A stretch of DNA of 54,166 bases, from NCBI GenBank assembly GCA_029821145.1, contig JALGTY010000004.1, positions 1 to 54,166 on the forward strand, read 5' to 3'. Position 1 is the stretch's first letter; every line of letters starts with the position of its first letter. The notes beneath the pieces were generated by a model. That model worked only from the letters and a program-made list of their open reading frames with translations. It searched no databases and was not told where the DNA came from. This document shows, piece by piece, positions 3,342 to 40,016 of this stretch. Both the position numbers and the translations under genes were made by a program. The DNA comes from Candidatus Zipacnadia bacterium (lineage in GTDB: Bacteria > Armatimonadota > Zipacnadia > Zipacnadales > UBA11051).

Positions 3342-3370
3342 TTGACGAATCTGCCATGCTGTACTATACT
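3342..3370 (+). promoter_or_regulatory. Sigma70-type promoter for the T-box leader
   Basis: TTGACG (3342-3347), a 17-nt spacer, then TATACT (3365-3370). Confidence 0.6.
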
Positions 3371-3376
3371 GTAGTC

Positions 3377-3650
3377 AATCTGGATGTTGCTTACGGCGAG
3401 GAAGGGGAGGAGTAGGCGGACCCCGCCAGGATACAGAGAGCCGTCGTCGTGCTGAGAGACGGTGCCAACGGGCCGCTGAATGTCGCCCTCGAGCCGTTGG
3501 GCTGAACGAACTTCGTGGGAGTAGGTCCGGCCGGGTGCGCCCGTTACCGCGCTAAAGAGTCCGGTGTAGCCGCAAGGTTGCGCCGGGAATCTGGGTGGTA
3601 CCGCAGGAGCTAGCAAGCCTCTTGTCCCATTGTGGACACGAGGTTTTTTT
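3377..3650 (+). promoter_or_regulatory. T-box riboswitch leader (tRNA-sensing transcription attenuator)
   Basis: K-turn-like CGGC-GAG-GA (3394-3402) lies opposite GA-GCCG (3491-3496). AGUA (3411-3414) lies opposite GAA (3478-3480), as in a specifier-loop S-turn. There is an AGAGAG box (3435-3440) and an F-box-like CCCGUUACC (3540-3548). The near-consensus T-box AAUCUGGGUGGUACCGCAGG is at 3588-3607, and a terminator hairpin plus U7 is at 3618-3650. Confidence 0.8.
3618..3650 (+). terminator. Intrinsic terminator of the T-box expression platform
   Basis: The stem cctcttgtcc/ggacacgagg has one mismatch, the loop is cattgt, and ttttttt (3644-3650) follows. Confidence 0.75.
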
Positions 3651-3698
3651 GTACCTCAATGCGTGCAGTACCTGGTGTTATTGGCGAGGCCTACTGTC

Positions 3699-4349
3699 AT
3701 GCAGATCGCACGGGCAGGCACTTTCTCGATAGTAGCACGCGACGGGGGCACCGGCGACATGGGGGTGGCCGTTCACTCCAAGTATTTCGCCGTGGGTAAC
3801 GTTGTGCCGTGGGCTGTGGCCGGGGTGGGAGCGATAGCGACACAGGCTGCGGTGAATCCCGAATTTGGTCCGGAGGGACTTCGCTTATTGCGCACGGGGC
3901 TGTTACCGGAAGATGCTCTGGAGCAGATGTTGGCGGCGGATGACACTCCGGAACTGCGCCAGGTGGGAATCATAGACCACCGGGGGCGTACCGCCAACCA
4001 CACGGGCGCAGAATGTACTCAGTGGGCAGGAGCTATCTGTGGCGACGATTTCTGCGCCCAGGGGAACATCCTGGTCGGGCCACAAGTGATTGACGCTATG
4101 GTAGGGACCTTCGAAGATACAGCGGGGCAGGTACTGCCCGAACGCTTGATGCGGACGCTTGAAGCTGCACAGGCAGCCGGCGGCGACTCCAGAGGACAGC
4201 AATCGGCCGCTCTGCTGGTGGTGAGCGAAGACATTGGGATTGCAGGTTTCACGGACCGCATAGTGGACCTGCGAGTGGACGATCACACGCTACCTGTTGA
4301 GGAACTGCGGCGCATATTTGACATGCTCAAGGCTATGCGGGAGTGGTAG
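3699..4349 (+). CDS. DUF1028 family protein (Ntn-hydrolase-fold, function unknown)
   Basis: MQIARAGTFSIVARDGGTGDMGVAVHSKYFAVG... shows the typical TFSIVARD N-terminus. The ATG at 3699 lies after GGCGAGG. The upstream TTG at 3630 lies inside the terminator. Confidence 0.7.
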   Translation: MQIARAGTFSIVARDGGTGDMGVAVHSKYFAVGNVVPWAVAGVGAIATQAAVNPEFGPEGLRLLRTGLLPEDALEQMLAADDTPELRQVGIIDHRGRTANHTGAECTQWAGAICGDDFCAQGNILVGPQVIDAMVGTFEDTAGQVLPERLMRTLEAAQAAGGDSRGQQSAALLVVSEDIGIAGFTDRIVDLRVDDHTLPVEELRRIFDMLKAMREW

Positions 4350-4358
4350 GTCGCGAAA

Positions 4359-4457
4359 GACCTCGGGCTGGAAGCTGAGAATTGACCCACGCCTGTGGCG
4401 CGGGTACCCCCATTCTCACCTGACCTGCGCCTCGCGCAGGTCAGGCCGAGCCACGCG
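4359..4457. repeat. Composite REP-like element, long copy B
   Basis: gacctcgggctggaagctgagaat...attctcacctgacctgcgc-ctc-gcgcaggtcaggccgagccacgcg has the same arms and terminal hairpin as copy A, with a different central insert. Confidence 0.8.
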
Positions 4458-4532
4458 TTTTGCAGGTTGTTCGAGCTAGGATCTAGTATAGTGAGTCAGT
4501 GAGACAGCCACATCACGAACGGAGGCAGGGAG

Positions 4533-6194
4533 ATGAAGAAGCATAGTGGACCGGTGGTACAAGGAATCAGCCGGGCGCCGGCACGTGCGCTGCTGCACGC
4601 CTGCGGCTTCACGCCCGAACAGCTTTCGGATAATCCATTTATCGGGATCGCCAACAGCTACAGCGATATCGTGCCGGGGCACGTCGGAATGCAGCGTCTG
4701 TTGCGCGGTGTCGAGCTGGGCATCGCCGCCGGTGGCGGGACTCCTATGAGCTTTGGCATTCCTGCAATCTGTGATGGGGTGGCTATGGGCCATGCCGGCA
4801 TGTTCTACAGCCTGCCCAGCCGTGAACTAATCGCCGACACCGTCGAGAGCATGGCGATCGCGCACGGTTTCGACGGCCTGGTACTGCTGACGAATTGCGA
4901 CAAGATCACTCCGGGGATGCTGATGGCCGCGGGCCGGCTTGATATACCGGCTATCGCCATCACCGCCGGCCCGATGCACTCGGGCCGACTGGCGGGCAAG
5001 CCGCTCTCGCTCGTCCGCGATACCTTTGAGGCCTTCAATAAGGCCGAGCGGGGTGTGATAAGCGAGGAAGAGCTGCACGATCTGGAGATCGAGGCCTGCC
5101 CCGGCCTCGGCTCGTGCCAGGGCCTTTACACGGCCAATACGATGGCCTGCGTGACAGAGGCGATGGGGATGAGTCTGGTCGGGTGCGGTACGGCTCTGGC
5201 CGGTATGGCCAAGAAGGAGCGGTTGGCTTACGATACGGGTGTGGCCGCCTGCCGGCTGGTGGAAGAGGACATCACCGCCCGCCACGTCATCACCGAAGCC
5301 AGCATCAGAAACGCCATCCGCATGGATATGACTCTGGGCGGCTCGACAAACTCGTGCCTGCACATTGCAGCGATCGCCTACGAGGCGGGTGTGGATATCA
5401 GCCTGGAAGTCTTTGACCAGCTATCCAAAGAGACGCCGCAGATAGCACACCTGCGTCCGGGTGGCGACTATATGATGGAAGACTTGGACTGGGCAGGAGG
5501 GATAGCCGGGGCCTTCTCGGTGCTGGCCGAATTGCTGGATGACAACATCACCGTCTCGGGCAAGACTGTTGCGGAGATCGCTAACGAAGGCCGCGTTACC
5601 GACAGTGATGTGATTCGCTCCCTGGACAACGCCTATCGGGAAGAGGGTGGTATCGCCGTCCTGCGCGGTAATCTGTGCCCGGACGGTGCGGTTGTCAAGC
5701 AGTCCGCGGTGTCGGAGAAGATGCGCAAGTTCCGCGGGACCGCCGTGTGCTTCGATTCAGAGGAAGAGGCGCTGGAGGCCATCATTGCCGACAGTATTCC
5801 GAACGGCTCCTGGGTCATCATCCGCTACGAGGGGCCCAGAGGCGGCCCCGGGATGCGGGAGATGCTCAACCCGACGGCGACACTGACGGGCATGGGCAAA
5901 GAGGAGGCAGTAGGGCTGCTGACCGATGGGCGCTTCTCAGGTGGCACGCGCGGCCCCTGCGTCGGTCACATCTCGCCGGAGGCGGCGGCCGGTGGTACGC
6001 TGGCGCTGGTGCAAGACGGCGATGAAATAGCCATTGACCTCGATGCTCGGAGCCTGGAGCTTCTGGTAGATGAGGCAGAACTGGGCAGGCGTCGCGAAGC
6101 CTGGCAGGCGCCAGATGCTAAGATCACCACGGGCTGGCTGGCGCGCTATGCGCGGTGTGTGCAGTCGGCGGCTTCTGGCGCGGTAATGAAATAA
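4533..6194 (+). CDS. ilvD: Dihydroxy-acid dehydratase
   Basis: 553 aa with the motifs [24 protein letters not shown] and [20 protein letters not shown] lies 8 nt upstream of the ATG. Confidence 0.95.
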
Positions 6195-6255
6195 TCTCAC
6201 CCGATGGCTTCGGCAGCCGTACAGTGAAGCCTTGCGGGTCCAAGGAGGTAATATC

Positions 6256-7953
6256 GTGAGTGGAAAAATGATCAACGGTGCCGTGGGGATGCTCCAGGTG
6301 CTGGAGGAAGAAGGTGTGGATGTCATCTTCGGATACCCGGGCGGGTCCGTGATACCGATCTATGACGCGCTGTACGATTCGAAGATAAAGAACATCCTGC
6401 CGCGCCACGAGCAGGGGGCAGCACACGCTGCCGACGGCTACGCACGCTCGACTGGCCGGGTGGGTGTGTGCATGGCCACCAGCGGCCCGGGTGCGCTGAA
6501 CCTGGTCACCGGACTGGCGAACGCTTACATGGACTCGGTGCCGATGGTAGCCATCACCGGCCAGGTCAAGAGGCCCTTAATTGGCAAGGATTCCTTCCAG
6601 GAGGCCGATACTACCGGCGTCACGATTCCAGTCACGAAGCACAACTACCTGGTGACTAACACGGCCGAGCTGGTGGACATCTGCCGGGAGGCGTTTTACC
6701 TGGCGCGGACGGGCCGTCCCGGGCCGGTGCTGGTGGACGTGCCGTTCGACGTCAGCATCGGCGAGGTACCGTGGACTGAGCGCAATATCGAGGGGCTCGA
6801 CGGCTACGAGGAGCCGAAGCCGGTTGATGACGAGCTCATCCGCCGGTCTGCGGACATGATCGAGCAGGCCAAAAGGCCAATTCTCATGATCGGCGGCGGG
6901 GTAGTCGCCTCGGGGGCTTCGGAGAAGCTGTTTGAGTTGGCGACCAAATGCAATATCGGTGTGGTCCACACGATGATGGGCAAGGGCGCTTTCCCGGAAA
7001 GCCACGAGCTCTCGATGGGGATGCCGGGGATGCATGGGATGGCGTACGCCTCGATGGCCCTGCAGAACAGCGACCTGATGATCGTCATCGGGGCGCGCTT
7101 TGACGACCGCATCACCGGCGCTCTGGAGAGCTTCGCCCCCGGTGCCCAGGTGATTCACATTGATGTTGACGCCGCCGAAATTGACAAACTGCGCCCGGCG
7201 AAGGTCGGCATTTGCGCTGACGCCGGCGATGCTCTCGCCAAGCTCATCGCGGCCTGCAAGCCACGCGATAAGGGTCCGTGGGAAGAACAACTTTTTGAGT
7301 GGCGGCGTACACACCCGCTGACATATCCAACGCCTGATGAGGGCATCGCGCCACAGTACATAGTCGAGCAGCTATACGAGCTGACCGGCGGCAACGCGAT
7401 AATCGCCACCGAGGTTGGTCAGAACCAGATGTGGGCGGCACAGTATTACAAGCTCGAAAAGCCCCGGCGGTTTCTGAGTTCCGGCGGCCTGGGCACCATG
7501 GGCTACGGTTTCCCGGCGGCCATTGGCGCTCAGGTGGGCAACCCGGGCGAGCTGGTCGTTGACATCGCCGGTGATGGCAGCATCCAGATGAACCAACAGG
7601 AGCTGACCACCGCCAGCATCAATAAGCTGCCAGTTAAGGTGGTCATTCTCAACAACAGCTATCTGGGGATGGTGCGGCAGTGGCAGGAGATGTTCTTCGA
7701 CAACCGGCTTTCGGGTGTTGACTTGACCGGCAACCCGGACTTCGTGAAGATGGCCGAGGCGCATGGGGGAGTGGGACTGCGCTGTGCCGAACCCGATAAG
7801 GTGCGCGAGACCCTCGAGCAGGGCCTGGAGGTCAATGATAAGCCGGTGTTCATGGACTTCCTAGTCCACAAGCAAGAGAACGTGTTCCCGTTCATACCGG
7901 CCGGGAAGAGCGTTGATGACATTATCATGGAGCAACCTGAGAATGAGAAATGA
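6256..7953 (+). CDS. ilvB: Acetolactate synthase large (catalytic) subunit
   Basis: ThDP-enzyme motifs are present (GYPGGSVIPIYDAL, GPGALNLVTGLANAYMDS, GLGTMGYGFPAAIGAQ, DGSIQMNQQEL). The start is set at the GTG at 6256, 7 nt after AAGGAGG (6242-6248). Confidence 0.9.
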   Translation: MSGKMINGAVGMLQVLEEEGVDVIFGYPGGSVIPIYDALYDSKIKNILPRHEQGAAHAADGYARSTGRVGVCMATSGPGALNLVTGLANAYMDSVPMVAITGQVKRPLIGKDSFQEADTTGVTIPVTKHNYLVTNTAELVDICREAFYLARTGRPGPVLVDVPFDVSIGEVPWTERNIEGLDGYEEPKPVDDELIRRSADMIEQAKRPILMIGGGVVASGASEKLFELATKCNIGVVHTMMGKGAFPESHELSMGMPGMHGMAYASMALQNSDLMIVIGARFDDRITGALESFAPGAQVIHIDVDAAEIDKLRPAKVGICADAGDALAKLIAACKPRDKGPWEEQLFEWRRTHPLTYPTPDEGIAPQYIVEQLYELTGGNAIIATEVGQNQMWAAQYYKLEKPRRFLSSGGLGTMGYGFPAAIGAQVGNPGELVVDIAGDGSIQMNQQELTTASINKLPVKVVILNNSYLGMVRQWQEMFFDNRLSGVDLTGNPDFVKMAEAHGGVGLRCAEPDKVRETLEQGLEVNDKPVFMDFLVHKQENVFPFIPAGKSVDDIIMEQPENEK

Positions 7954-8005
7954 CGTGCTGCAGACCAGCGGAATCTCAGATTTTGCACTGGGGAAGGTGA
8001 CGAAT

Positions 8006-8491
8006 ATGACACACACATTGTCAGCACTGGTGAAGAACCGCCCGCGGGTTCTGGCCCGTGTGGCAGGGCTATTCGCCAGGCGTGATTTCAATATCGAGAG
8101 CCTGGCCGTCAGCACCACCGAGGATCCCGCGATTTCACGTATGACCATCGCTGTGGATGTTTCCGGGACGCCGCTGGAGCAAGTTCGCAAGCAACTCGAG
8201 AAACTGCATGATGTGGTCACCGTAATAGACCATACAGAGCATGCCGTGGTAGAGCGCGAGTTGTGTATGGTCAAGGTAAATGTGAAGCCGTCCCAGCGAG
8301 CCGAAGCGGCGGCCTTGGTGGAGATCTTCCGTGGCGATATCATTGACATCGGCAATGGCACGCTGATCGTGCAGTCCATCGGCAATTCGGACAAGATTGA
8401 TGCGTTCGTCGAGAACTTCGCCGACTACGGCATCATTGAATTGGTGCGCACAGGCAAGGTCGTATTGGCACGCGGCGGACAGAAGACCTGA
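8006..8491 (+). CDS. ilvN: Acetolactate synthase small (regulatory, ACT-domain) subunit
   Basis: MTHTLSALVKNRPRVLARVAGLFARRDFNIESLAV... is a typical IlvN/IlvH N-terminus. The gene lies immediately after ilvB. Confidence 0.9.
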   Translation: MTHTLSALVKNRPRVLARVAGLFARRDFNIESLAVSTTEDPAISRMTIAVDVSGTPLEQVRKQLEKLHDVVTVIDHTEHAVVERELCMVKVNVKPSQRAEAAALVEIFRGDIIDIGNGTLIVQSIGNSDKIDAFVENFADYGIIELVRTGKVVLARGGQKT

Positions 8492-8568
8492 GTCGGGCGC
8501 GTTCGTGGAGGCCGGTCCGCCAATAGCCGCGCGCGTCGTTGCCTATCGTCGAAAGGAGTGTGCAGACC

Positions 8569-9285
8569 ATGTCAGCTTCGTGGAAGGCCGTGTTGGTCGT
8601 AGGAATTCTGGTGGTGGGCGCCTTTGCCATTGCCGGACAGGGCAGCGCACAGAGCTCGCCCGTGCACTTTGAGGACACTGATCTGACTGAGCCGGAGTTC
8701 CGGGATCTGACCATGAATAGCCCGGAATTCCACGGGGTCAACCTGCGGGACAGCCTCTTCGAACGATGCAAATTCACGAATGGGAAATTCACGAATTGCG
8801 GTCTCTCTGAGGTGACCTTCAGTCAATCAAAGATGCAGAAGCCGAGCTTCAAGCAAATGACGTTCGAGTATCCATCGTTCCATACAGGTGCGTTCAAGTA
8901 TGGCCGTTTCGAGCGGATGGAGTTCGATGGGACCCGCTTTTACGACTGCGATCTGGATGACGTCATCTGGGAGTACAGCGAAAGCGATGACCTGCATCTG
9001 CTCCGCTGCACCGGCACGGACTGGTACATAGAGCGGGTCGAGCTACGCAATCTGCGCGCCGAATACTTCAAGGCCACATATGCCCGTTGGAGCAGTTGCG
9101 AATTTGACCACGGGCATTTTTCTCACACCGACTTCTCATTCAGCACGATGGAAAACGCCGACCTGCGGCGCACTACCATCAAGTACTCCGATCTTTCGGA
9201 CGTGTCCATCGAGCGCTGCAATATCCGTGGGCTGGAGATAGACGGGGTGGATATCGAAGAACTGTTGCGCAAAGCAGGGCATTAG
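8569..9285 (+). CDS. Secreted pentapeptide-repeat protein
   Basis: A signal-like N-terminus (MSASWKAVLVVGILVVGAFAIAGQGSAQS) is followed by repeated A(D/N)L/F-x-x style pentapeptides (CKFTNGKFTNCGLSEVTFSQ..., ENADLRRTTIKYSDLSDVSIERCNIRG). AAAGGAG lies upstream of the ATG at 8569. Confidence 0.7.
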   Translation: MSASWKAVLVVGILVVGAFAIAGQGSAQSSPVHFEDTDLTEPEFRDLTMNSPEFHGVNLRDSLFERCKFTNGKFTNCGLSEVTFSQSKMQKPSFKQMTFEYPSFHTGAFKYGRFERMEFDGTRFYDCDLDDVIWEYSESDDLHLLRCTGTDWYIERVELRNLRAEYFKATYARWSSCEFDHGHFSHTDFSFSTMENADLRRTTIKYSDLSDVSIERCNIRGLEIDGVDIEELLRKAGH

Positions 9286-9292
9286 GTATATA

Positions 9293-9712
9293 TTGAGTGA
9301 AGGCCGCGGCGGGAGGCGGAAGGTGGAACCGCAGCTAAGAGAGATTGTTGACTTGGCACAGGTGGATGCGTTCATGATCTACCTGGCTATCGCTGCGCCG
9401 GTGCTGGGGCTGTTCATCGGCGTCATCGCCGGAGGTATGCAGGGCCGTTTGCTGCAGGGCCTGGGCCGAGGACTGGCGTTCGGAATGCTGGGTCCGATCG
9501 TGCTGGTGATGTGGCGCTTCTACCGCCACATGGTCCGCTATGACCCAGGAACCGGATACGTCGGGCTGCACAAGATGTCGGTGTTCGTGCTGAATATCTG
9601 CATATTCGCTGTTGTGGGAATTGTACTGGGCGCGGTCTATGGCAAACTGATTCGCGGTGCGGGGTCGTCGGCTGAAAAGGACAAGAACAATCCGGAAAGT
9701 GCTGGCAGTTGA
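9293..9712 (+). CDS. Small hypothetical membrane protein
   Basis: Three hydrophobic helices are visible ([55 protein letters not shown]). The start is uncertain: TTG at 9293 or ATG at 9374. No family was recognised. Confidence 0.4.
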
Positions 9713-9732
9713 TCACTAAGGAGGAATTTCCT

Positions 9733-10734
9733 ATGGCTGTTACGATCTACTACGACGACGATGCTGATCTGAGCGTACTCGATGGCAAGAAGGTCGCCAT
9801 CATTGGCTACGGCATTCAGGGCTCAGCGCAATCAATGTGTTTGCGCGATTCCGGGGTAGATGTCATAGTGTCGGAGCTGGAGGGTACGGCGAATTTCGAG
9901 AAGGCCGTTGCTGACGGCTGGGAGGTATGTACGGATGCGGCAGACGCCGCCAGGGAAGCCGACCTGGTCCAGATCCTGACACAGGACCACGTGCAGGCAA
10001 CGGTCTACAAGAACCTCATCGAGCCGAACCTGGAAGCGGGCAATGCGCTGATCTTCTCGCACGGGTTCAACATCCACTACAAGCAGATCGTGCCGCCCGA
10101 CTTCGTGGATGTTTTCATGGTCGCTCCCAAGGGTCCGGGCGCGCTGGTGCGGGAGTGCTATGTGTCCGATACCGGGGTACCGTGCCTGCTGGCGGTGTAT
10201 CAGGACGCCACCGGCATGGCCAAGCAGTACGGCCTGGCCTACGCGAAGGCGATCAAGGGTACCAAGGCCGGCCTGATCGAGACCACCTTCGCCGAGGAAA
10301 CCATCACCGATCTGTTCGGGGAGCAAGTCGTGCTGTGCGGCGGGGTGACGGAACTGATTACCGCCGCTTTTGACACTCTCGTCGAGGGCGGCTACGCGCC
10401 CGAGATGGCGTACTTCGAGGTCCTCCACGAACTGAAGCTAATCATGGACCTGGTCTATAACAAAGGCATCATCGGCATGCGGCGCGGCGTGTCCGACACC
10501 GCCACCTACGGCGACCTGAGCCGTGGGCCACGCATCATCAACGAAGAAACACGGGCGGAGATGAGAAAAATCCTCACCGAGGTGGAAGACGGCTCGTTCG
10601 CCAAGGAATGGATCCTGGAGAACCAGGCCGGCCGCACGGTCTTTAACGCGCTGCTCGAGAAGTCGGCCGACCACCTGATCGAAAGGATCGGCAAAGAGTT
10701 GCGCGCAATGATGCCGTGGATTCAAGACGACTGA
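9733..10734 (+). CDS. ilvC: Ketol-acid reductoisomerase (class I)
   Basis: [41 protein letters not shown]... The ATG at 9733 is preceded by AAGGAGG. Confidence 0.95.
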
Positions 10735-10756: not shown

Positions 10757-12682
10757 CTAGTCGGACATATTGTGTATCAGATGGTCGTGCACGGCCTGGG
10801 CGGCCTTGCGGTTCATGCCCGGGACGGCGGCTAATTCATCTACCGGGGCGCTACGCATCGCCTGGATGGAGGGGAACGCCTTGAGCAGCGCGGCGCGGCG
10901 CTTGGGGCCGATGCCCTCGATCTCGTCAAGCTGGGAACTGCTCATGCTCTTGGCTCGCAGTCCGCGGTGGTAAGCTATCGCAAAGCGGTGGGCTTCGTCA
11001 CGGATCCGCTGCAACAGGAATTGCCCTCGAGGGTGGGCACTCATATCCAGCGGCATGCCGTGGCCCCGCACGAACACCTCTTCCTCAGCCTTAGCCAGAC
11101 CGGCCAGCGCGATATTGTCCTCGCTCGCGACCTCGTCCAGAATCTTCCCGACAGCATTCAACTGACCCTTGCCACCGTCCACGACAATCAGGTCAGGCAG
11201 GGGTAGGAATTTATTGTCACCGGCCTTCGCCGCTCGCAGGCGGCGAGCCAGCACCTCCGCCAGCATCGCATAGTCGTCCTGGCCCGCGACGGTGCGGATG
11301 CGGAAGCGGCGGTAGCCGGATTTGTCCGGCACGCCGCCAGCGAAGACCACCATCGAGCCCACGGCATGATCGCCCTGCAAGTTGGATATGTCGTAGCATT
11401 CAATTCGGCGGACGGGCTGCTGAAGCTCCAACGCTTCGGCCAGATCGCTGAGTGCGGCATCACTGTCTGCGGCGCGGGTTCGGGCGTGGTGTGCAAGCGC
11501 TTCGAGAGCCGTCTTGGCGTTCATCTGCGCCAGTTCGATCAGGCGGCGGCGCTCACCGCGCTGGGGCACTGCGAGATCAACAGGGCCCCCGCGCATCTGC
11601 GAAAGCAGCTCCTCCCACTCTTGTTGCTCCCCAAGCGGAGCGGCGAGGAGCACGTGGCGGGCCGGGATGTTGCCAGCGCCGTAGTACAGCGTCATCGCGG
11701 CTTCAATGATTTCGCCGAGGGAGCGTCCGGCGGCGTGGGCGAGGCTATAGGTTTCCTGGGTGGTCAGCCGGCCGCCGCGCACTCCAAGCAGCTTCACGAC
11801 CGCGCGCTCATCTTCACTGGCCGCACCGAAGAGGTCCTGGTCGCGGTTCTCGTTAGCCACCATGAGCTGGTCTTCGCTGCTACGCTCGATGGTCTGCAGC
11901 TTGTCGCGGAGCATCGCCGCCCGCTCAAAGTCCAGTTCCTGTGCGGCCCGCTCCATTTCGCCTCTGATTCTGTCGGTGATCTGTTTGGTCTTGCCGTCCA
12001 GGAAGCTGATGACCTGCTCGACCACCTCGGCGTACTGCTCATCGCTGACATTGCCCGTACACGGGCCTACACAATGGCCGAGATGGTAGTAGAGGCACGG
12101 CTTGCCGGCGGGGGTGCCGTCGAGTTTGCGGCGGCACTGGCGCAGACCAAATAGCTGGCTGGCCATGCGTCGGGCACGCCACATGACGCTGGCGGTGGGG
12201 TATGGGCCGAAAATCTCGCCGGCGCTGAAACCGTAAACCTCGTGGCGCTTGGGGTCGTGAAAGCCGCGCCGGTATTTCCCACCACCACCCGGTATGCGTA
12301 CACGGGCGTCGCTGGGTAGATCACGGATTACCAGCAGGCGCGGGTATTTCTCGGCGGTGAGACACAGGTAGGGGTAGCTCTTGTCATCGCGCAGGCGGAT
12401 GTTGAAGCGGGGCTTGTGCTGCTTAATCAGAGTCGCTTCAAGGATGAGGGCCTCAGTCTCGGTGCGGGTGACGATATAGTCGAAGTCGGCCAGCTTCTGG
12501 TGCATCACCTGCGCCCAGCCACCGGTACGGTCGCTGTCACCGCGCACGTGCTGGCGGAGGCGGGCGCCCAGGGACCGCGCTTTGCCGACATAGATAATGT
12601 GCCCGCCGGCGTCCAGAATGTTATAGACGCCTGGCTGGGATGGGACCTGGTCGAGTTTTTCGAGGAGATCTTGCTGGTTCAT
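10757..12682 (-). CDS. uvrC: Excinuclease ABC subunit C
   Basis: 641 aa with a GIY-YIG N-terminus (PGVYNILDAGGHIIYVGKA...YPYL), a UVR-type helix and a C-terminal HhH region. Confidence 0.95.
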   Translation of the reverse strand: MNQQDLLEKLDQVPSQPGVYNILDAGGHIIYVGKARSLGARLRQHVRGDSDRTGGWAQVMHQKLADFDYIVTRTETEALILEATLIKQHKPRFNIRLRDDKSYPYLCLTAEKYPRLLVIRDLPSDARVRIPGGGGKYRRGFHDPKRHEVYGFSAGEIFGPYPTASVMWRARRMASQLFGLRQCRRKLDGTPAGKPCLYYHLGHCVGPCTGNVSDEQYAEVVEQVISFLDGKTKQITDRIRGEMERAAQELDFERAAMLRDKLQTIERSSEDQLMVANENRDQDLFGAASEDERAVVKLLGVRGGRLTTQETYSLAHAAGRSLGEIIEAAMTLYYGAGNIPARHVLLAAPLGEQQEWEELLSQMRGGPVDLAVPQRGERRRLIELAQMNAKTALEALAHHARTRAADSDAALSDLAEALELQQPVRRIECYDISNLQGDHAVGSMVVFAGGVPDKSGYRRFRIRTVAGQDDYAMLAEVLARRLRAAKAGDNKFLPLPDLIVVDGGKGQLNAVGKILDEVASEDNIALAGLAKAEEEVFVRGHGMPLDMSAHPRGQFLLQRIRDEAHRFAIAYHRGLRAKSMSSSQLDEIEGIGPKRRAALLKAFPSIQAMRSAPVDELAAVPGMNRKAAQAVHDHLIHNMSD

Positions 12683-12957: not shown

Positions 12958-14934
12958 TCAGTCGTCCAGCATCTTCTCCAGCTCTTTGATTTCATCGCGC
13001 AGTTCGGCCGCATGCTCGAAATCAAGCTCTTCGGCGGCCTTGTGCATTTCGATCTCCAGCGCCGCGATTACGTCGCGCATATCGTCAGTGTCCATGATGG
13101 AGGCTGCTTCCGGGCTGACCAGACGGCGGGCGCGTTCGGCTATCATGGCCCGGATCGGCTCCCGCACCGTCTTCTTCACTGTCCGCGGCACGATACCGTG
13201 AGCTTCGTTATAGGCCCTCTGCTTTGCGCGACGGCGGGTGGTCTCATCAATGGCCGCCTGCATCGCGGAGGTGATCTCATCGGCATACATGATCGCCTTG
13301 CCCTCTTCGTGGCGGGCGGCGCGCCCCATGTTCTGCATTAGCGAGGTCTCAGAGCGCAGAAAGCCCTCACGGTCGGCGTCCAATATCGCCATCAGCGACA
13401 CCTCCGGCAGGTCCAGGCCCTCGCGCAGCAGGTTTATGCCGACCAGTACATCGTAGGCCCCCAGCCGCAGATCGCGCAGCAGCTCAGTGCGCTCCAGGGT
13501 GTCTATGTCGGAGTGCAGGTAGTGGACGCGGATTGACATCTCGGCCAGATACTCGCAGAGGTCCTCGGCCATGCGCTTGGTCAGGGTGGTGACCAGCACA
13601 CGCTGCTGCCTGTCCACACGCCTCTTTATTTCAGCAATCAGGTCGTCAATCTGGCCCTCGGTCGGCCGCACCTCCACCTCCGGGTCGAGCAGGCCGGTGG
13701 GGCGGATCACACATTCCACGATACGGCTGGCCTTGTTCTTCTCGTAGGGGCCGGGTGTTGCGGAGGTGTAGATGACCTGGTTGACGTGCTGCTCCCATTC
13801 GCTGAAGGTCAGCGGGCGGTTGTCGTAGGCGGAGGGCAGGCGAAAGCCGTGCTCGACGAGGCTATCCTTGCGCGAGCGGTCGCCCTGGTACATCGCGCGG
13901 ACTTGCGGAATGCTCTGGTGCGATTCATCAACAACCAGCAAGAAGTCATCGGGGAAGTAGTCCATCAGCGTGTGTGGCGGCTGGCCGGCTTTGCGGCCGT
14001 CCAGGTGACGGGAGTAGTTCTCGATGCCCTGGCAGTAGCCGATCTCGTGGATCATCTCCAGGTCGTAGTTGGTGCGCTGCTCCAGCCGCTGGGCCTCGAG
14101 TAGCTTGCCCTGGTTCTCAAACCAGGCGGCTCTTTCGCCCAGCTCCTGGCGGATGCTGACCATCGCGTCCTGCAGCCGCTCGGCGGAAGTCACAAAGTGG
14201 CTGGTCGGGAAGAGCAGTGTGCTGTCCCTGGTTTCGACGATCTCGCCGGTGATTTCGTTGATGCGAGTGATGCGCTCGACCTGGTCGCCGAACAACTCCA
14301 GCCGGGTAATGAGATCCTCGTCAACCGGGTGAACCTCGATGACATCACCGCGGACGCGAAAGGTGCCGCGCTCCAGGGCAAGATCGTTGCGGCTAAACTG
14401 CATGTTCACCAACTGGCGCAAGATGGCGTCGCGCTCGATCTGCTGCCCGACTCTGAGTTCGAGAGTGATTTGCTTGTACTCCTCGGGCGAGCCGAGGCCA
14501 AAGATGCATGAGACCGAGGCGACGACTATCGTATCGCGCCGCGAGGCGACCGAATGTGTGGCGGAGTGTCGCAGTCGTTCGATTTCTTCGTTAATCTCGG
14601 CATCTTTCTCGATGTAGGTATCAGTCTGGGGCAAGTACGCCTCGGGCTGATAATAGTCGTAGTAGCTGACGAAGTACTCGACGGCGTTGTCGGGAAAGAA
14701 CTCGCGAAATTCCATGCAAAGCTGGCCGGCCAGTGTCTTGTTGTGGACGAGTACCAGCGTCGGCCGTTGTACCGTCTCGATGACCTTGGCGATCACGTAG
14801 GTCTTGCCGGAGCCGGTGATGCCGAGCAGCACCTGATCGCGCTCACCGTCGAGAACACCCTCGCTGAGCGCCTCGATGGCCTGCGCCTGGTCGCCTTTGG
14901 GCTCATATTCTGATATTACTTGGAACTCGGGCAC
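12958..14934 (-). CDS. uvrB: Excinuclease ABC subunit B
   Basis: Motifs [13 protein letters not shown] and a C-terminal UVR domain are present. The start is set at the GTG at 14934 ([16 protein letters not shown]), which is preceded by GGAGA. The track TTG at 14973 lies only a few nt from the predicted -10 box. Confidence 0.93.
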
Positions 14935-39927: not shown

Positions 39928-40016
39928 GCCGGAGTGGCGGAATTGGCAGACGCACTGGACTCAAAATCCAGCGGGGCTCAAACCCCGTGTCGGTTCGAAT
40001 CCGACCTCCGGCACCA
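39928..40016 (+). tRNA. tRNA-Leu (anticodon CAA), class II long variable arm, CCA encoded
   Basis: The acceptor stem is gccggag/ctccggc. The anticodon stem-loop is ctgga-CU CAA AA-tccag, with the anticodon at 39962-39964. The variable arm is cggggctcaaaccccg and the T-loop is GGTTCGAATCC. The discriminator is A, followed by CCA. Confidence 0.93.

Follow-up and report, generated by a model that had tools for sequence, protein, structure and literature searches.

In Bacillus subtilis, the leader before the ilv-leu (ilvB) operon (RF00230) is a class I transcriptional T-box that has its own promoter and, through tRNA-dependent antitermination, governs branched-chain enzymes that include acetolactate synthase and ketol-acid reductoisomerase. 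Its elements follow one another in the order Stem I, Stem II, Stem IIA/B, Stem III, and antiterminator/terminator, and CodY, TnrA, and CcpA control is added on top. It reads tRNA-Leu through the codon CUC (Marta et al. 1996, cited in PMC2494555; PMC12452182). A leader that resembles it in class, promoter, target enzymes, and order of elements is present in a 54,166-nucleotide stretch of DNA from a Candidatus Zipacnadia bacterium (contig JALGTY010000004.1 of assembly GCA_029821145.1, positions 1 to 54,166; hereafter the window), where it lies in front of a DUF1028-ilvD-ilvBN-ilvC gene cluster. This leader differs in that it is predicted to read tRNA-Val through GUC rather than tRNA-Leu through CUC, in that ilvD is the ancestral first gene and leu genes are absent, and in that the host belongs to the Armatimonadota and not to the Bacillota.

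Other described T-boxes also bear comparison. The valS T-boxes of the Bacillota share the Val specificity, with GUC in regular use for Val (29% of Val specifiers in TBDB, PMC7778990) and a UGGU sequence matching discriminator A, but they regulate a synthetase, whereas the leader in the window is placed to regulate a biosynthetic operon. T-boxes occur mainly in the Firmicutes, with fewer in the Actinobacteria, Chloroflexi, Deinococcus-Thermus, and some Deltaproteobacteria; non-firmicute examples include those on leuA in Geobacter and Pelobacter, on ileS and trp genes in Dehalococcoides (Chloroflexi), on ileS and a glycyl-tRNA ligase gene in Deinococcus, and on ileS in Actinobacteria (PMC2494555; PMC7778990 supplement). 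Like the leader described here, these are sporadic or lineage-specific and are associated with single amino-acid operons. However, they are present as few leaders per genome and have other specificities (Leu, Ile, Trp, Gly), whereas here one Val leader at one locus is found in several Armatimonadota classes and in one metagenome-assembled genome (MAG) of the Poribacteria.

All the criteria of sequence and structure that were applied place the leader in the window among the T-boxes of RF00230. The family model matches along its full length (1-219) at 104.7 bits (E = 4e-22), and the T-box riboswitch that a preliminary description of this DNA had proposed from the letters and their open reading frames (ORFs) is therefore over the curated gathering score of 93. 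The feature is far beyond chance, since the Rfam threshold is passed and 37 homologous leaders covary. The kink-turn (K-turn), the AGUA/GAA S-turn, the AG bulge, and the distal loop of Stem I are all at the positions expected from the model, and each of the motifs read earlier by eye (K-turn, S-turn, AGAGAG box, and F-box-like sequence) can be located, the last as CCGUUA; the T-box sequence AAUCUGGGUGGUACCGCAGG is also where it had been placed (Table 1). A global minimum free energy (MFE) fold of the whole leader is non-canonical (z = -0.8), which is uninformative because the RNA is multi-domain and tRNA-dependent; the analysis therefore relied on alignment to the covariance model (CM), on covariation within each module, and on folds of local segments. 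Ribosome-mediated attenuation through a leader peptide is not supported, as there is no plausible Val-rich small ORF in the leader.

Table 1. Features of the T-box leader and its surroundings in the window.
Feature	Position	Strand	Elements and remarks	Basis
Sigma-70-type promoter	3342-3370	+	TTGACG 3342-3347, 17 nt, TATACT 3365-3370	consensus scan
Complete class I (transcriptional) T-box leader	3390-3650	+		Rfam RF00230 match 3390-3632
Stem I	3396-3494	+		Rfam alignment and covariation
Stem I K-turn			GC 3396-3397, GAGGA 3398-3402, opposite GAGC 3491-3494	
Stem I lower helix			GGGG 3404-3407 / CCCU 3486-3489	
Specifier loop S-turn			AGUA 3411-3414 (5' side), GAA 3478-3480 (3' side)	
AG bulge and distal elements			AGAGAG 3435-3440; distal helix 3440-3445/3458-3463; distal loop 3446-3457	
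Specifier codon GUC (Val)	3482-3484	+	3' strand of specifier loop GAA-U-GUC-G 3478-3485, purine G3485 next	
Stem II	3497-3530	+	UUGGGCU 3497-3503 / GGUCCGG 3524-3530; S-turn GAA 3504-3506, AGUA 3520-3523	Rfam alignment
Stem IIA/B pseudoknot	3532-3552	+	IIA CGGG 3532-3535/CCCG 3540-3543; IIB GCGC 3537-3540/GCGC 3549-3552; C3540 drawn in both helices, register approximate	
F-box CCGUUA	3541-3546	+		
Stem III hairpin	3560-3587	+		Rfam alignment, MFE fold
T-box sequence	3588-3607	+	AAUCUGGGUGGUACCGCAGG	
Antiterminator	3592-3629	+	UGGG 3592-3595/CCCA 3626-3629; upper helix GCAGGAG 3603-3609/CUCUUGU 3619-3625	
T-box bulge, 7 nt	3596-3602	+	UGGUACC; UGGU predicted partner of tRNA 3' end ACCA	
Intrinsic terminator	3618-3650	+	stem 3618-3627/3634-3643, loop 3628-3633, U7 3644-3650	terminator scan
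DUF1028 gene, first ORF after leader	3699-4349	+		Pfam PF06267, E = 1e-75
Perfect 12-bp palindrome	4419-4445	+	CCTGACCTGCGC-CTC-GCGCAGGTCAGG; in ~55-nt repeat, no U-tract, strong hairpin in fold	
ilvD (dihydroxy-acid dehydratase)	4533-6194	+		Pfam ILVD_EDD_N, ILV_EDD_C
ilvB (acetolactate synthase large subunit)	6232-7953	+		Pfam TPP_enzyme_N/M/C
ilvN (acetolactate synthase small subunit)	7913-8491	+		Pfam ALS_ss_C, ACT
Pentapeptide-repeat protein	8539-9285	+		Pfam
139-aa (amino-acid) protein, no Pfam match	9293-9712	+		ORF inside operon
ilvC (ketol-acid reductoisomerase), last operon gene	9709-10734	+		Pfam KARI_N, KARI_C
uvrC, convergent, 3' of ilvC	10757-12682	-		Pfam UvrC domains
tRNA-Leu(CAA), single tRNA in the window	39928-40016		ARAGORN coordinates; Rfam match ends 40013	

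Comparison with related loci shows that the leader is widely conserved. A search with IlvD, using one genome per GTDB species, gave 80 loci (labelled L###), to which L081, L084, and L089 were added through DUF1028. The nearest IlvD loci (95% down to about 62% identity) lie, with few exceptions, in MAGs labelled Armatimonadota, Armatimonadia, Candidatus Zipacnadia, or 'candidate division WS1', in agreement with the earlier view that the host is not a firmicute; Candidatus Zipacnadia is a class of the Armatimonadota, which in turn belong to the kingdom-level group Bacillati. A T-box is present upstream of ilvD in every such locus with enough upstream sequence (motif scan, then Rfam), and the resulting set comprises L001-L030, L032, L034, and L056 together with the three DUF1028 loci. 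RF00230 scores 93.3-121.8 bits in 25 related loci. There is no match at the gathering threshold in L014, L020, and L030, although in these leaders, too, the motif and the GUC specifier are present and each of the two alternative folds can form. Outside the Armatimonadota, a T-box was not found in 17 of the 18 ilvD loci scanned, the exception being L048, a Poribacteria MAG with a T-box (6593-6849, 100.1 bits, specifier loop GAA-G-GUC-G, 46% G+C in the leader) directly before ilvD. The module of Val leader and ilvD is therefore not confined to the Armatimonadota, and a joint transfer of leader and gene is possible in this case. The leader directly precedes ilvD in 33 of the 38 T-box loci, which identifies ilvD as the ancestral target of the module. 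There is good support for the view that, in the Armatimonadota, the common branched-chain pathway has the Val-tRNA leader as its ancestral and phylum-wide regulator, with leader and ilvD shared with at least one Poribacteria lineage.

The promoter and the RNA structure are conserved together with the leader. The promoter in the window scores 10/12 against the consensus, with 0.2 such sites expected in shuffled sequence, and 35 of 37 leaders retain TTGAC(G/A/C)-17/18-TATA(C/G)T, with a constant spacing of 20-27 nt to the start of Stem I; this conservation at a fixed distance lends further support to the proposal that the leader has a promoter of its own. Among 28 sequences, 95.2% of Stem I cells are paired and 12 pairs have two-sided changes, a result reached by none of 500 shuffles and compared with 39-59% in slid controls. 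For Stem II and IIA/B, 93.1% of the cells are paired in 26 sequences (0/500 shuffles reach this number of cells paired; slid controls 29-40%). All seven pairs of Stem II covary, with 95.6% of cells paired, and the IIB pseudoknot is 98.1% paired, with one pair occurring as AU, GC, GU, and UA and another as CG and GC.

Two unusual leaders were noted in passing. In L013 (3397-3447) the leader is without most of Stem II and IIA/B and has 65 nt from specifier to T-box, compared with about 100-110 in close relatives; it retains Stem I, GUC, and the antiterminator/terminator, and the shortening is either a deletion of natural origin or an artefact of the assembly. In L040, a Nitrospirae MAG, a short T-box-like leader (about 13320-13530) without Stem II or IIA/B has the loop GAA-CUC-G (Leu) followed by a terminator; it is located downstream of the ilv operon of that MAG, near the end of the locus, and there is no Rfam call at the gathering threshold.

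The specifier codon is GUC, as had been proposed with the lower Stem I helix drawn as GGGG/CCCU. There are several lines of evidence. First, each of the 16 CM alignments inspected (the window and 15 relatives) has GUC in its codon columns, and in all of them the eight unpaired nucleotides on the 3' side of the loop read GAA-N-GUC-R directly before a 4-bp helix. Second, GUC followed by a purine is invariant in all 38 leaders, the next base being G in 35 and A in L023, L025, and L029. Third, the helix below the specifier loop is 100% paired in 28 sequences and has compensatory changes, such as GAGG/CCUC in L006, CGGG/CCCG in L007, and GGAG/CUCC in L011, and this fixes the register of GUC. Finally, the specifier amino acid matches the regulated genes, in that the downstream enzymes make valine.

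The switch region can form two mutually exclusive structures, since nucleotides 3619-3627 are used by both. The MFE fold of the antiterminator segment is exactly the bulged antiterminator, at -10 to -12 kcal/mol, and local folding gives -14 to -16 kcal/mol for the terminator; both are within the ranges given by TBDB (antiterminator -7.4 +/- 4.2, terminator -19.5 +/- 7.9; PMC7778990 supplement). All 37 folded leaders have a bulged antiterminator and an overlapping terminator (mean -12.8 and -22.6 kcal/mol), and every leader (the 37 folded and L048) has either UGGUACC or UGGUAAC as its bulge. The alternative folding suggested for this region thus withstands computation, as does the hairpin and U7 terminator ahead of the first ORF, with the distance from the end of the U7 tract at 3650 to the ATG at 3699 counted as 48 nt.

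Because the fourth base of the UGGU in the bulge is U, a tRNA with discriminator A is predicted. Genes for tRNA-Val(GAC) are present in two related contigs (L022, 2858-2932, and L030, 427-501, both on the minus strand) and read GGGCGCU...UUGACAC...AGCGCCC-A-CCA, with the anticodon GAC, discriminator A (A73), and an encoded CCA. These tRNAs fit both recognition points of the leader (specifier and bulge) exactly, in line with the earlier prediction of discriminator A from UGGU. In both lineages the tRNA-Val(GAC) gene is located 3.5-6 kb upstream of the Val T-box, which may reflect a conserved linkage of the sensor RNA and the gene for its ligand, or coincidence.

We therefore propose that the leader is very probably an ordinary class I T-box that reads uncharged tRNA-Val to switch on a branched-chain synthesis operon, a reading built on the sequence and structure elements observed, their covariation, the conservation of the specifier, and the matching tRNA in relatives. 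Transcription would start at the leader's own sigma-70-type promoter, and Stem I would offer its GUC specifier to the GAC anticodon of tRNA-Val, with the AG-bulge/distal-loop platform docking the tRNA elbow and Stem II and the IIA/B pseudoknot buttressing the codon-anticodon helix. With uncharged tRNA-Val, the free 3' ACCA would pair with the UGGU bulge and stabilise the weaker antiterminator, such that RNA polymerase would read through into DUF1028-ilvD-ilvBN-ilvC; with charged tRNA, the more stable terminator would form and transcription would stop. Valine starvation would then induce the products of ilvD, ilvBN, and ilvC, which the valine, isoleucine, and leucine pathways have in common. 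We infer the steps of tRNA binding and switching from established T-box knowledge (PMC7583486, PMC5951919), and likewise the read-through past DUF1028 to ilvD.

Some observations weigh against this reading. The gene for tRNA-Val(GAC) was not found in the 54-kb window, where the single tRNA is tRNA-Leu(CAA); the terminator in the window has a U-C mismatch and is just 3-4 kcal/mol or so more stable than the antiterminator; and DUF1028 and ilvD are separated by a 183-nt spacer containing a strong repeat hairpin and a TATAGT-containing block that is conserved in L081. Since the spacer holds these elements, ilvD in this genome could have escaped the leader in part, although we regard this as doubtful. 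In its fullest form this alternative accepts the T-box as real but has it controlling DUF1028 alone, with the spacer hairpin stopping or processing the transcript and a second promoter near TAGTATAGT (about 4483-4498) driving ilvD to ilvC. The palindrome forms a perfect 12-bp stem and recurs in another intergenic region of the window, and the block TAGTATAGTGAGTCAG both resembles the -10 region of the leader promoter (TACTATACTGTAGTCA) and is retained in L081, where the rest of the spacer is rich in indels. However, the hairpin has no U-tract, a consensus scan of the spacer calls neither a terminator nor a promoter, and there is no acceptable -35 sequence at 16-18 nt upstream of TATAGT. Moreover, DUF1028 is just 43 nt from the next gene in L084 (where this is ilvD) and in L089, and the leader adjoins ilvD at most of the loci described above. 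A DUF1028-only target is thus unlikely, and control of the whole operon by the Val leader is preferred.

The palindrome is of some interest in itself. It is a 27-nt sequence, CCTGACCTGCGC-NNN-GCGCAGGTCAGG, within a repeat of about 55 nt (TTCTCACCTGACC...GGCCGAGCCACGCGTYTTG) that is intergenic and similar to the repetitive extragenic palindrome (REP) type, with zero copies expected by chance. The second copy in the window is at 814-840, and others are present in L001 (4272-4321) and in the L081 spacer (5652-5842).

A specifier other than GUC is highly improbable. CUC (Leu, 3488-3490), UGU (Cys, 3481-3483), and UCG (Ser, 3483-3485) are all present around the specifier loop of the window, and UCG/UCA is conserved as well as GUC through its overlap with GUC-R, but the codon columns of the CM alignments hold GUC throughout. 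In the UCG reading the base after the codon is the first base of the helix and not a purine, the regulated genes make valine, and the UGGU bulge is unsuited to the discriminator of bacterial tRNA-Ser, which is G. A Cys specifier would similarly call for a discriminator other than the one that UGGU predicts. Moreover, GAA and GUC are separated by differing one- or two-base sequences across the 38 leaders (U, C, G, A, GA, AU, and UU), such that UGU is not conserved and is excluded, and UGU accounts for 0.00 of the Cys T-boxes in TBDB (PMC7778990); the preliminary description was right to dismiss it. CUC had been named there as a triplet that folding might place at the specifier position, but the alignment places GUC at that position, and CUC sits in the conserved lower helix and K-turn linker, where the triplet varies among the leaders (CUC, CCU, CUU, UCU, CGC, CCC, and others); CUC is therefore also excluded.

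Lastly, it is highly improbable that the leader acts on translation, by sequestering the Shine-Dalgarno sequence as the actinobacterial ileS T-boxes do, or is a decaying non-regulatory relic: T-boxes outside the Firmicutes are often translational (PMC7778990, PMC7583486) and the window terminator is weaker than the family mean, but its stem is followed by U7 ending well ahead of the start codon, the switch does not include the ribosome-binding site GAGG (about 3686-3689), the terminator hairpin is kept in all 37 leaders with at least three U in the 3' run in all but one, Stem I has its full length and neither Stem II nor the pseudoknot is missing, and leaders that covary while the adjacent IlvD proteins are merely 59-95% identical to that of the window point to purifying selection.

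The part of the preliminary description that has to be amended is the composition of the cluster: the order DUF1028-ilvD-ilvBN-ilvC behind the T-box holds, but DUF1028 does not belong to the core of the module and is a passenger confined to particular lineages. It is located between leader and ilvD in just four lineages, the window, L081 (DUF1028 75% and IlvD 93% identical to the window, 191 nt to the next gene), L084 (71% and 87%), and L089 (DUF1028 69%), and is absent from the junction in L001-L004 and all other loci. The window and L001, whose IlvD proteins are 95% identical, are collinear save for 3657-4518, where 862 nt comprising DUF1028 and 170 nt replace 45 nt of L001; L003, with an IlvD 94% identical to that of L084, also lacks DUF1028. 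This patchy pattern implies repeated loss or recombinational exchange, and a single recent insertion as sole explanation was dropped because orthologues are at the same site in L081, L084, and L089. A general tie of DUF1028 to T-boxes or ilv genes was likewise set aside, as the more distant homologues P0006 and P0032 stand in different gene neighbourhoods that lack a T-box. The junction tolerates foreign genes, as is apparent from L014, where an unrelated Fic/DOC-family gene (1641-2816) separates ilvD from the terminator of the Val T-box.

Accordingly, DUF1028 may be tied to valine in function, but the case is not compelling, given the distant DUF1028 genes elsewhere and the Fic/DOC gene at the junction in L014. 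DUF1028 may have been recruited to the valine-starvation regulon in one subclade and retained at 69-75% identity, and we put forward a functional link as a tentative suggestion, more doubtful than not. If true, it would be the first functional lead, such as an amidase or peptidase releasing valine or a precursor, and the patchy insertion right behind the terminator is a testable hint for this domain of unknown function. DUF1028 is placed in the Ntn (N-terminal nucleophile) hydrolase superfamily (JGI name), with PDB 2imh the single solved relative, and an exact-sequence look-up of the DUF1028 protein of the window gave no match. After a variable 7-residue prefix, the N-terminus reads MQIARAG-TFSIVA in the window (3699-3722) and MEMAPTG-TFSIVA or MHSQLKG-TFSIVA in orthologues, and the resemblance of this Gly-Thr junction to the autoprocessing site of Ntn hydrolases (e.g. 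proteasome beta subunits) suggests that it may be processed in the same way.

Val-specific T-boxes are described mainly on valS and transporter genes. A literature search gave nothing relevant on Val T-boxes before ilv, with Vitreschak et al. 2008 and the TBDB tables lying outside the search, and it gave no paper linking T-boxes with Armatimonadetes or Armatimonadota. The earlier judgement that a Val-specific T-box on an ilv cluster in a non-firmicute would be unusual thus stands as regards the phylum and the choice of amino acid but not the mechanism, which is canonical. A T-box in the Armatimonadota is no great surprise either, as this phylum is in the same group (Bacillati) as other T-box phyla. 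Our general understanding of T-box action is left unchanged. Nonetheless, a textbook Gram-positive regulatory RNA is extended to a poorly studied and mostly uncultured phylum, in which promoter, leader, and ilvD form a stable, vertically conserved module and not a stray. The logic also differs from that of B. subtilis in that the shared ilv enzymes would be tied to the charging of valine-tRNA and not of leucine-tRNA. The 38 naturally varied leaders with a fixed GUC provide a clean comparative set for T-box structure in high-GC RNA.

The remainder of the locus can be described briefly. From Pfam matches to the window ORFs, the leader is followed on the plus strand by DUF1028, ilvD, ilvB, ilvN, a pentapeptide-repeat gene, a gene for a 139-aa hypothetical protein, and ilvC. 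An Rfam scan of the whole window gives just two matches over the gathering thresholds, the T-box leader and tRNA-Leu(CAA), and no aminoacyl-tRNA synthetase gene, which was sought to gauge the wider use of T-boxes in this genome, is present in the 54 kb. GUC makes up 37% of the valine codons in the genes of the window. Finally, the pentapeptide-repeat and 139-aa genes are located together between ilvN and ilvC at the same place in many Armatimonadota loci (L001-L004, L018, L030, and L056), and represent an unexplained conserved pair within a biosynthetic operon.

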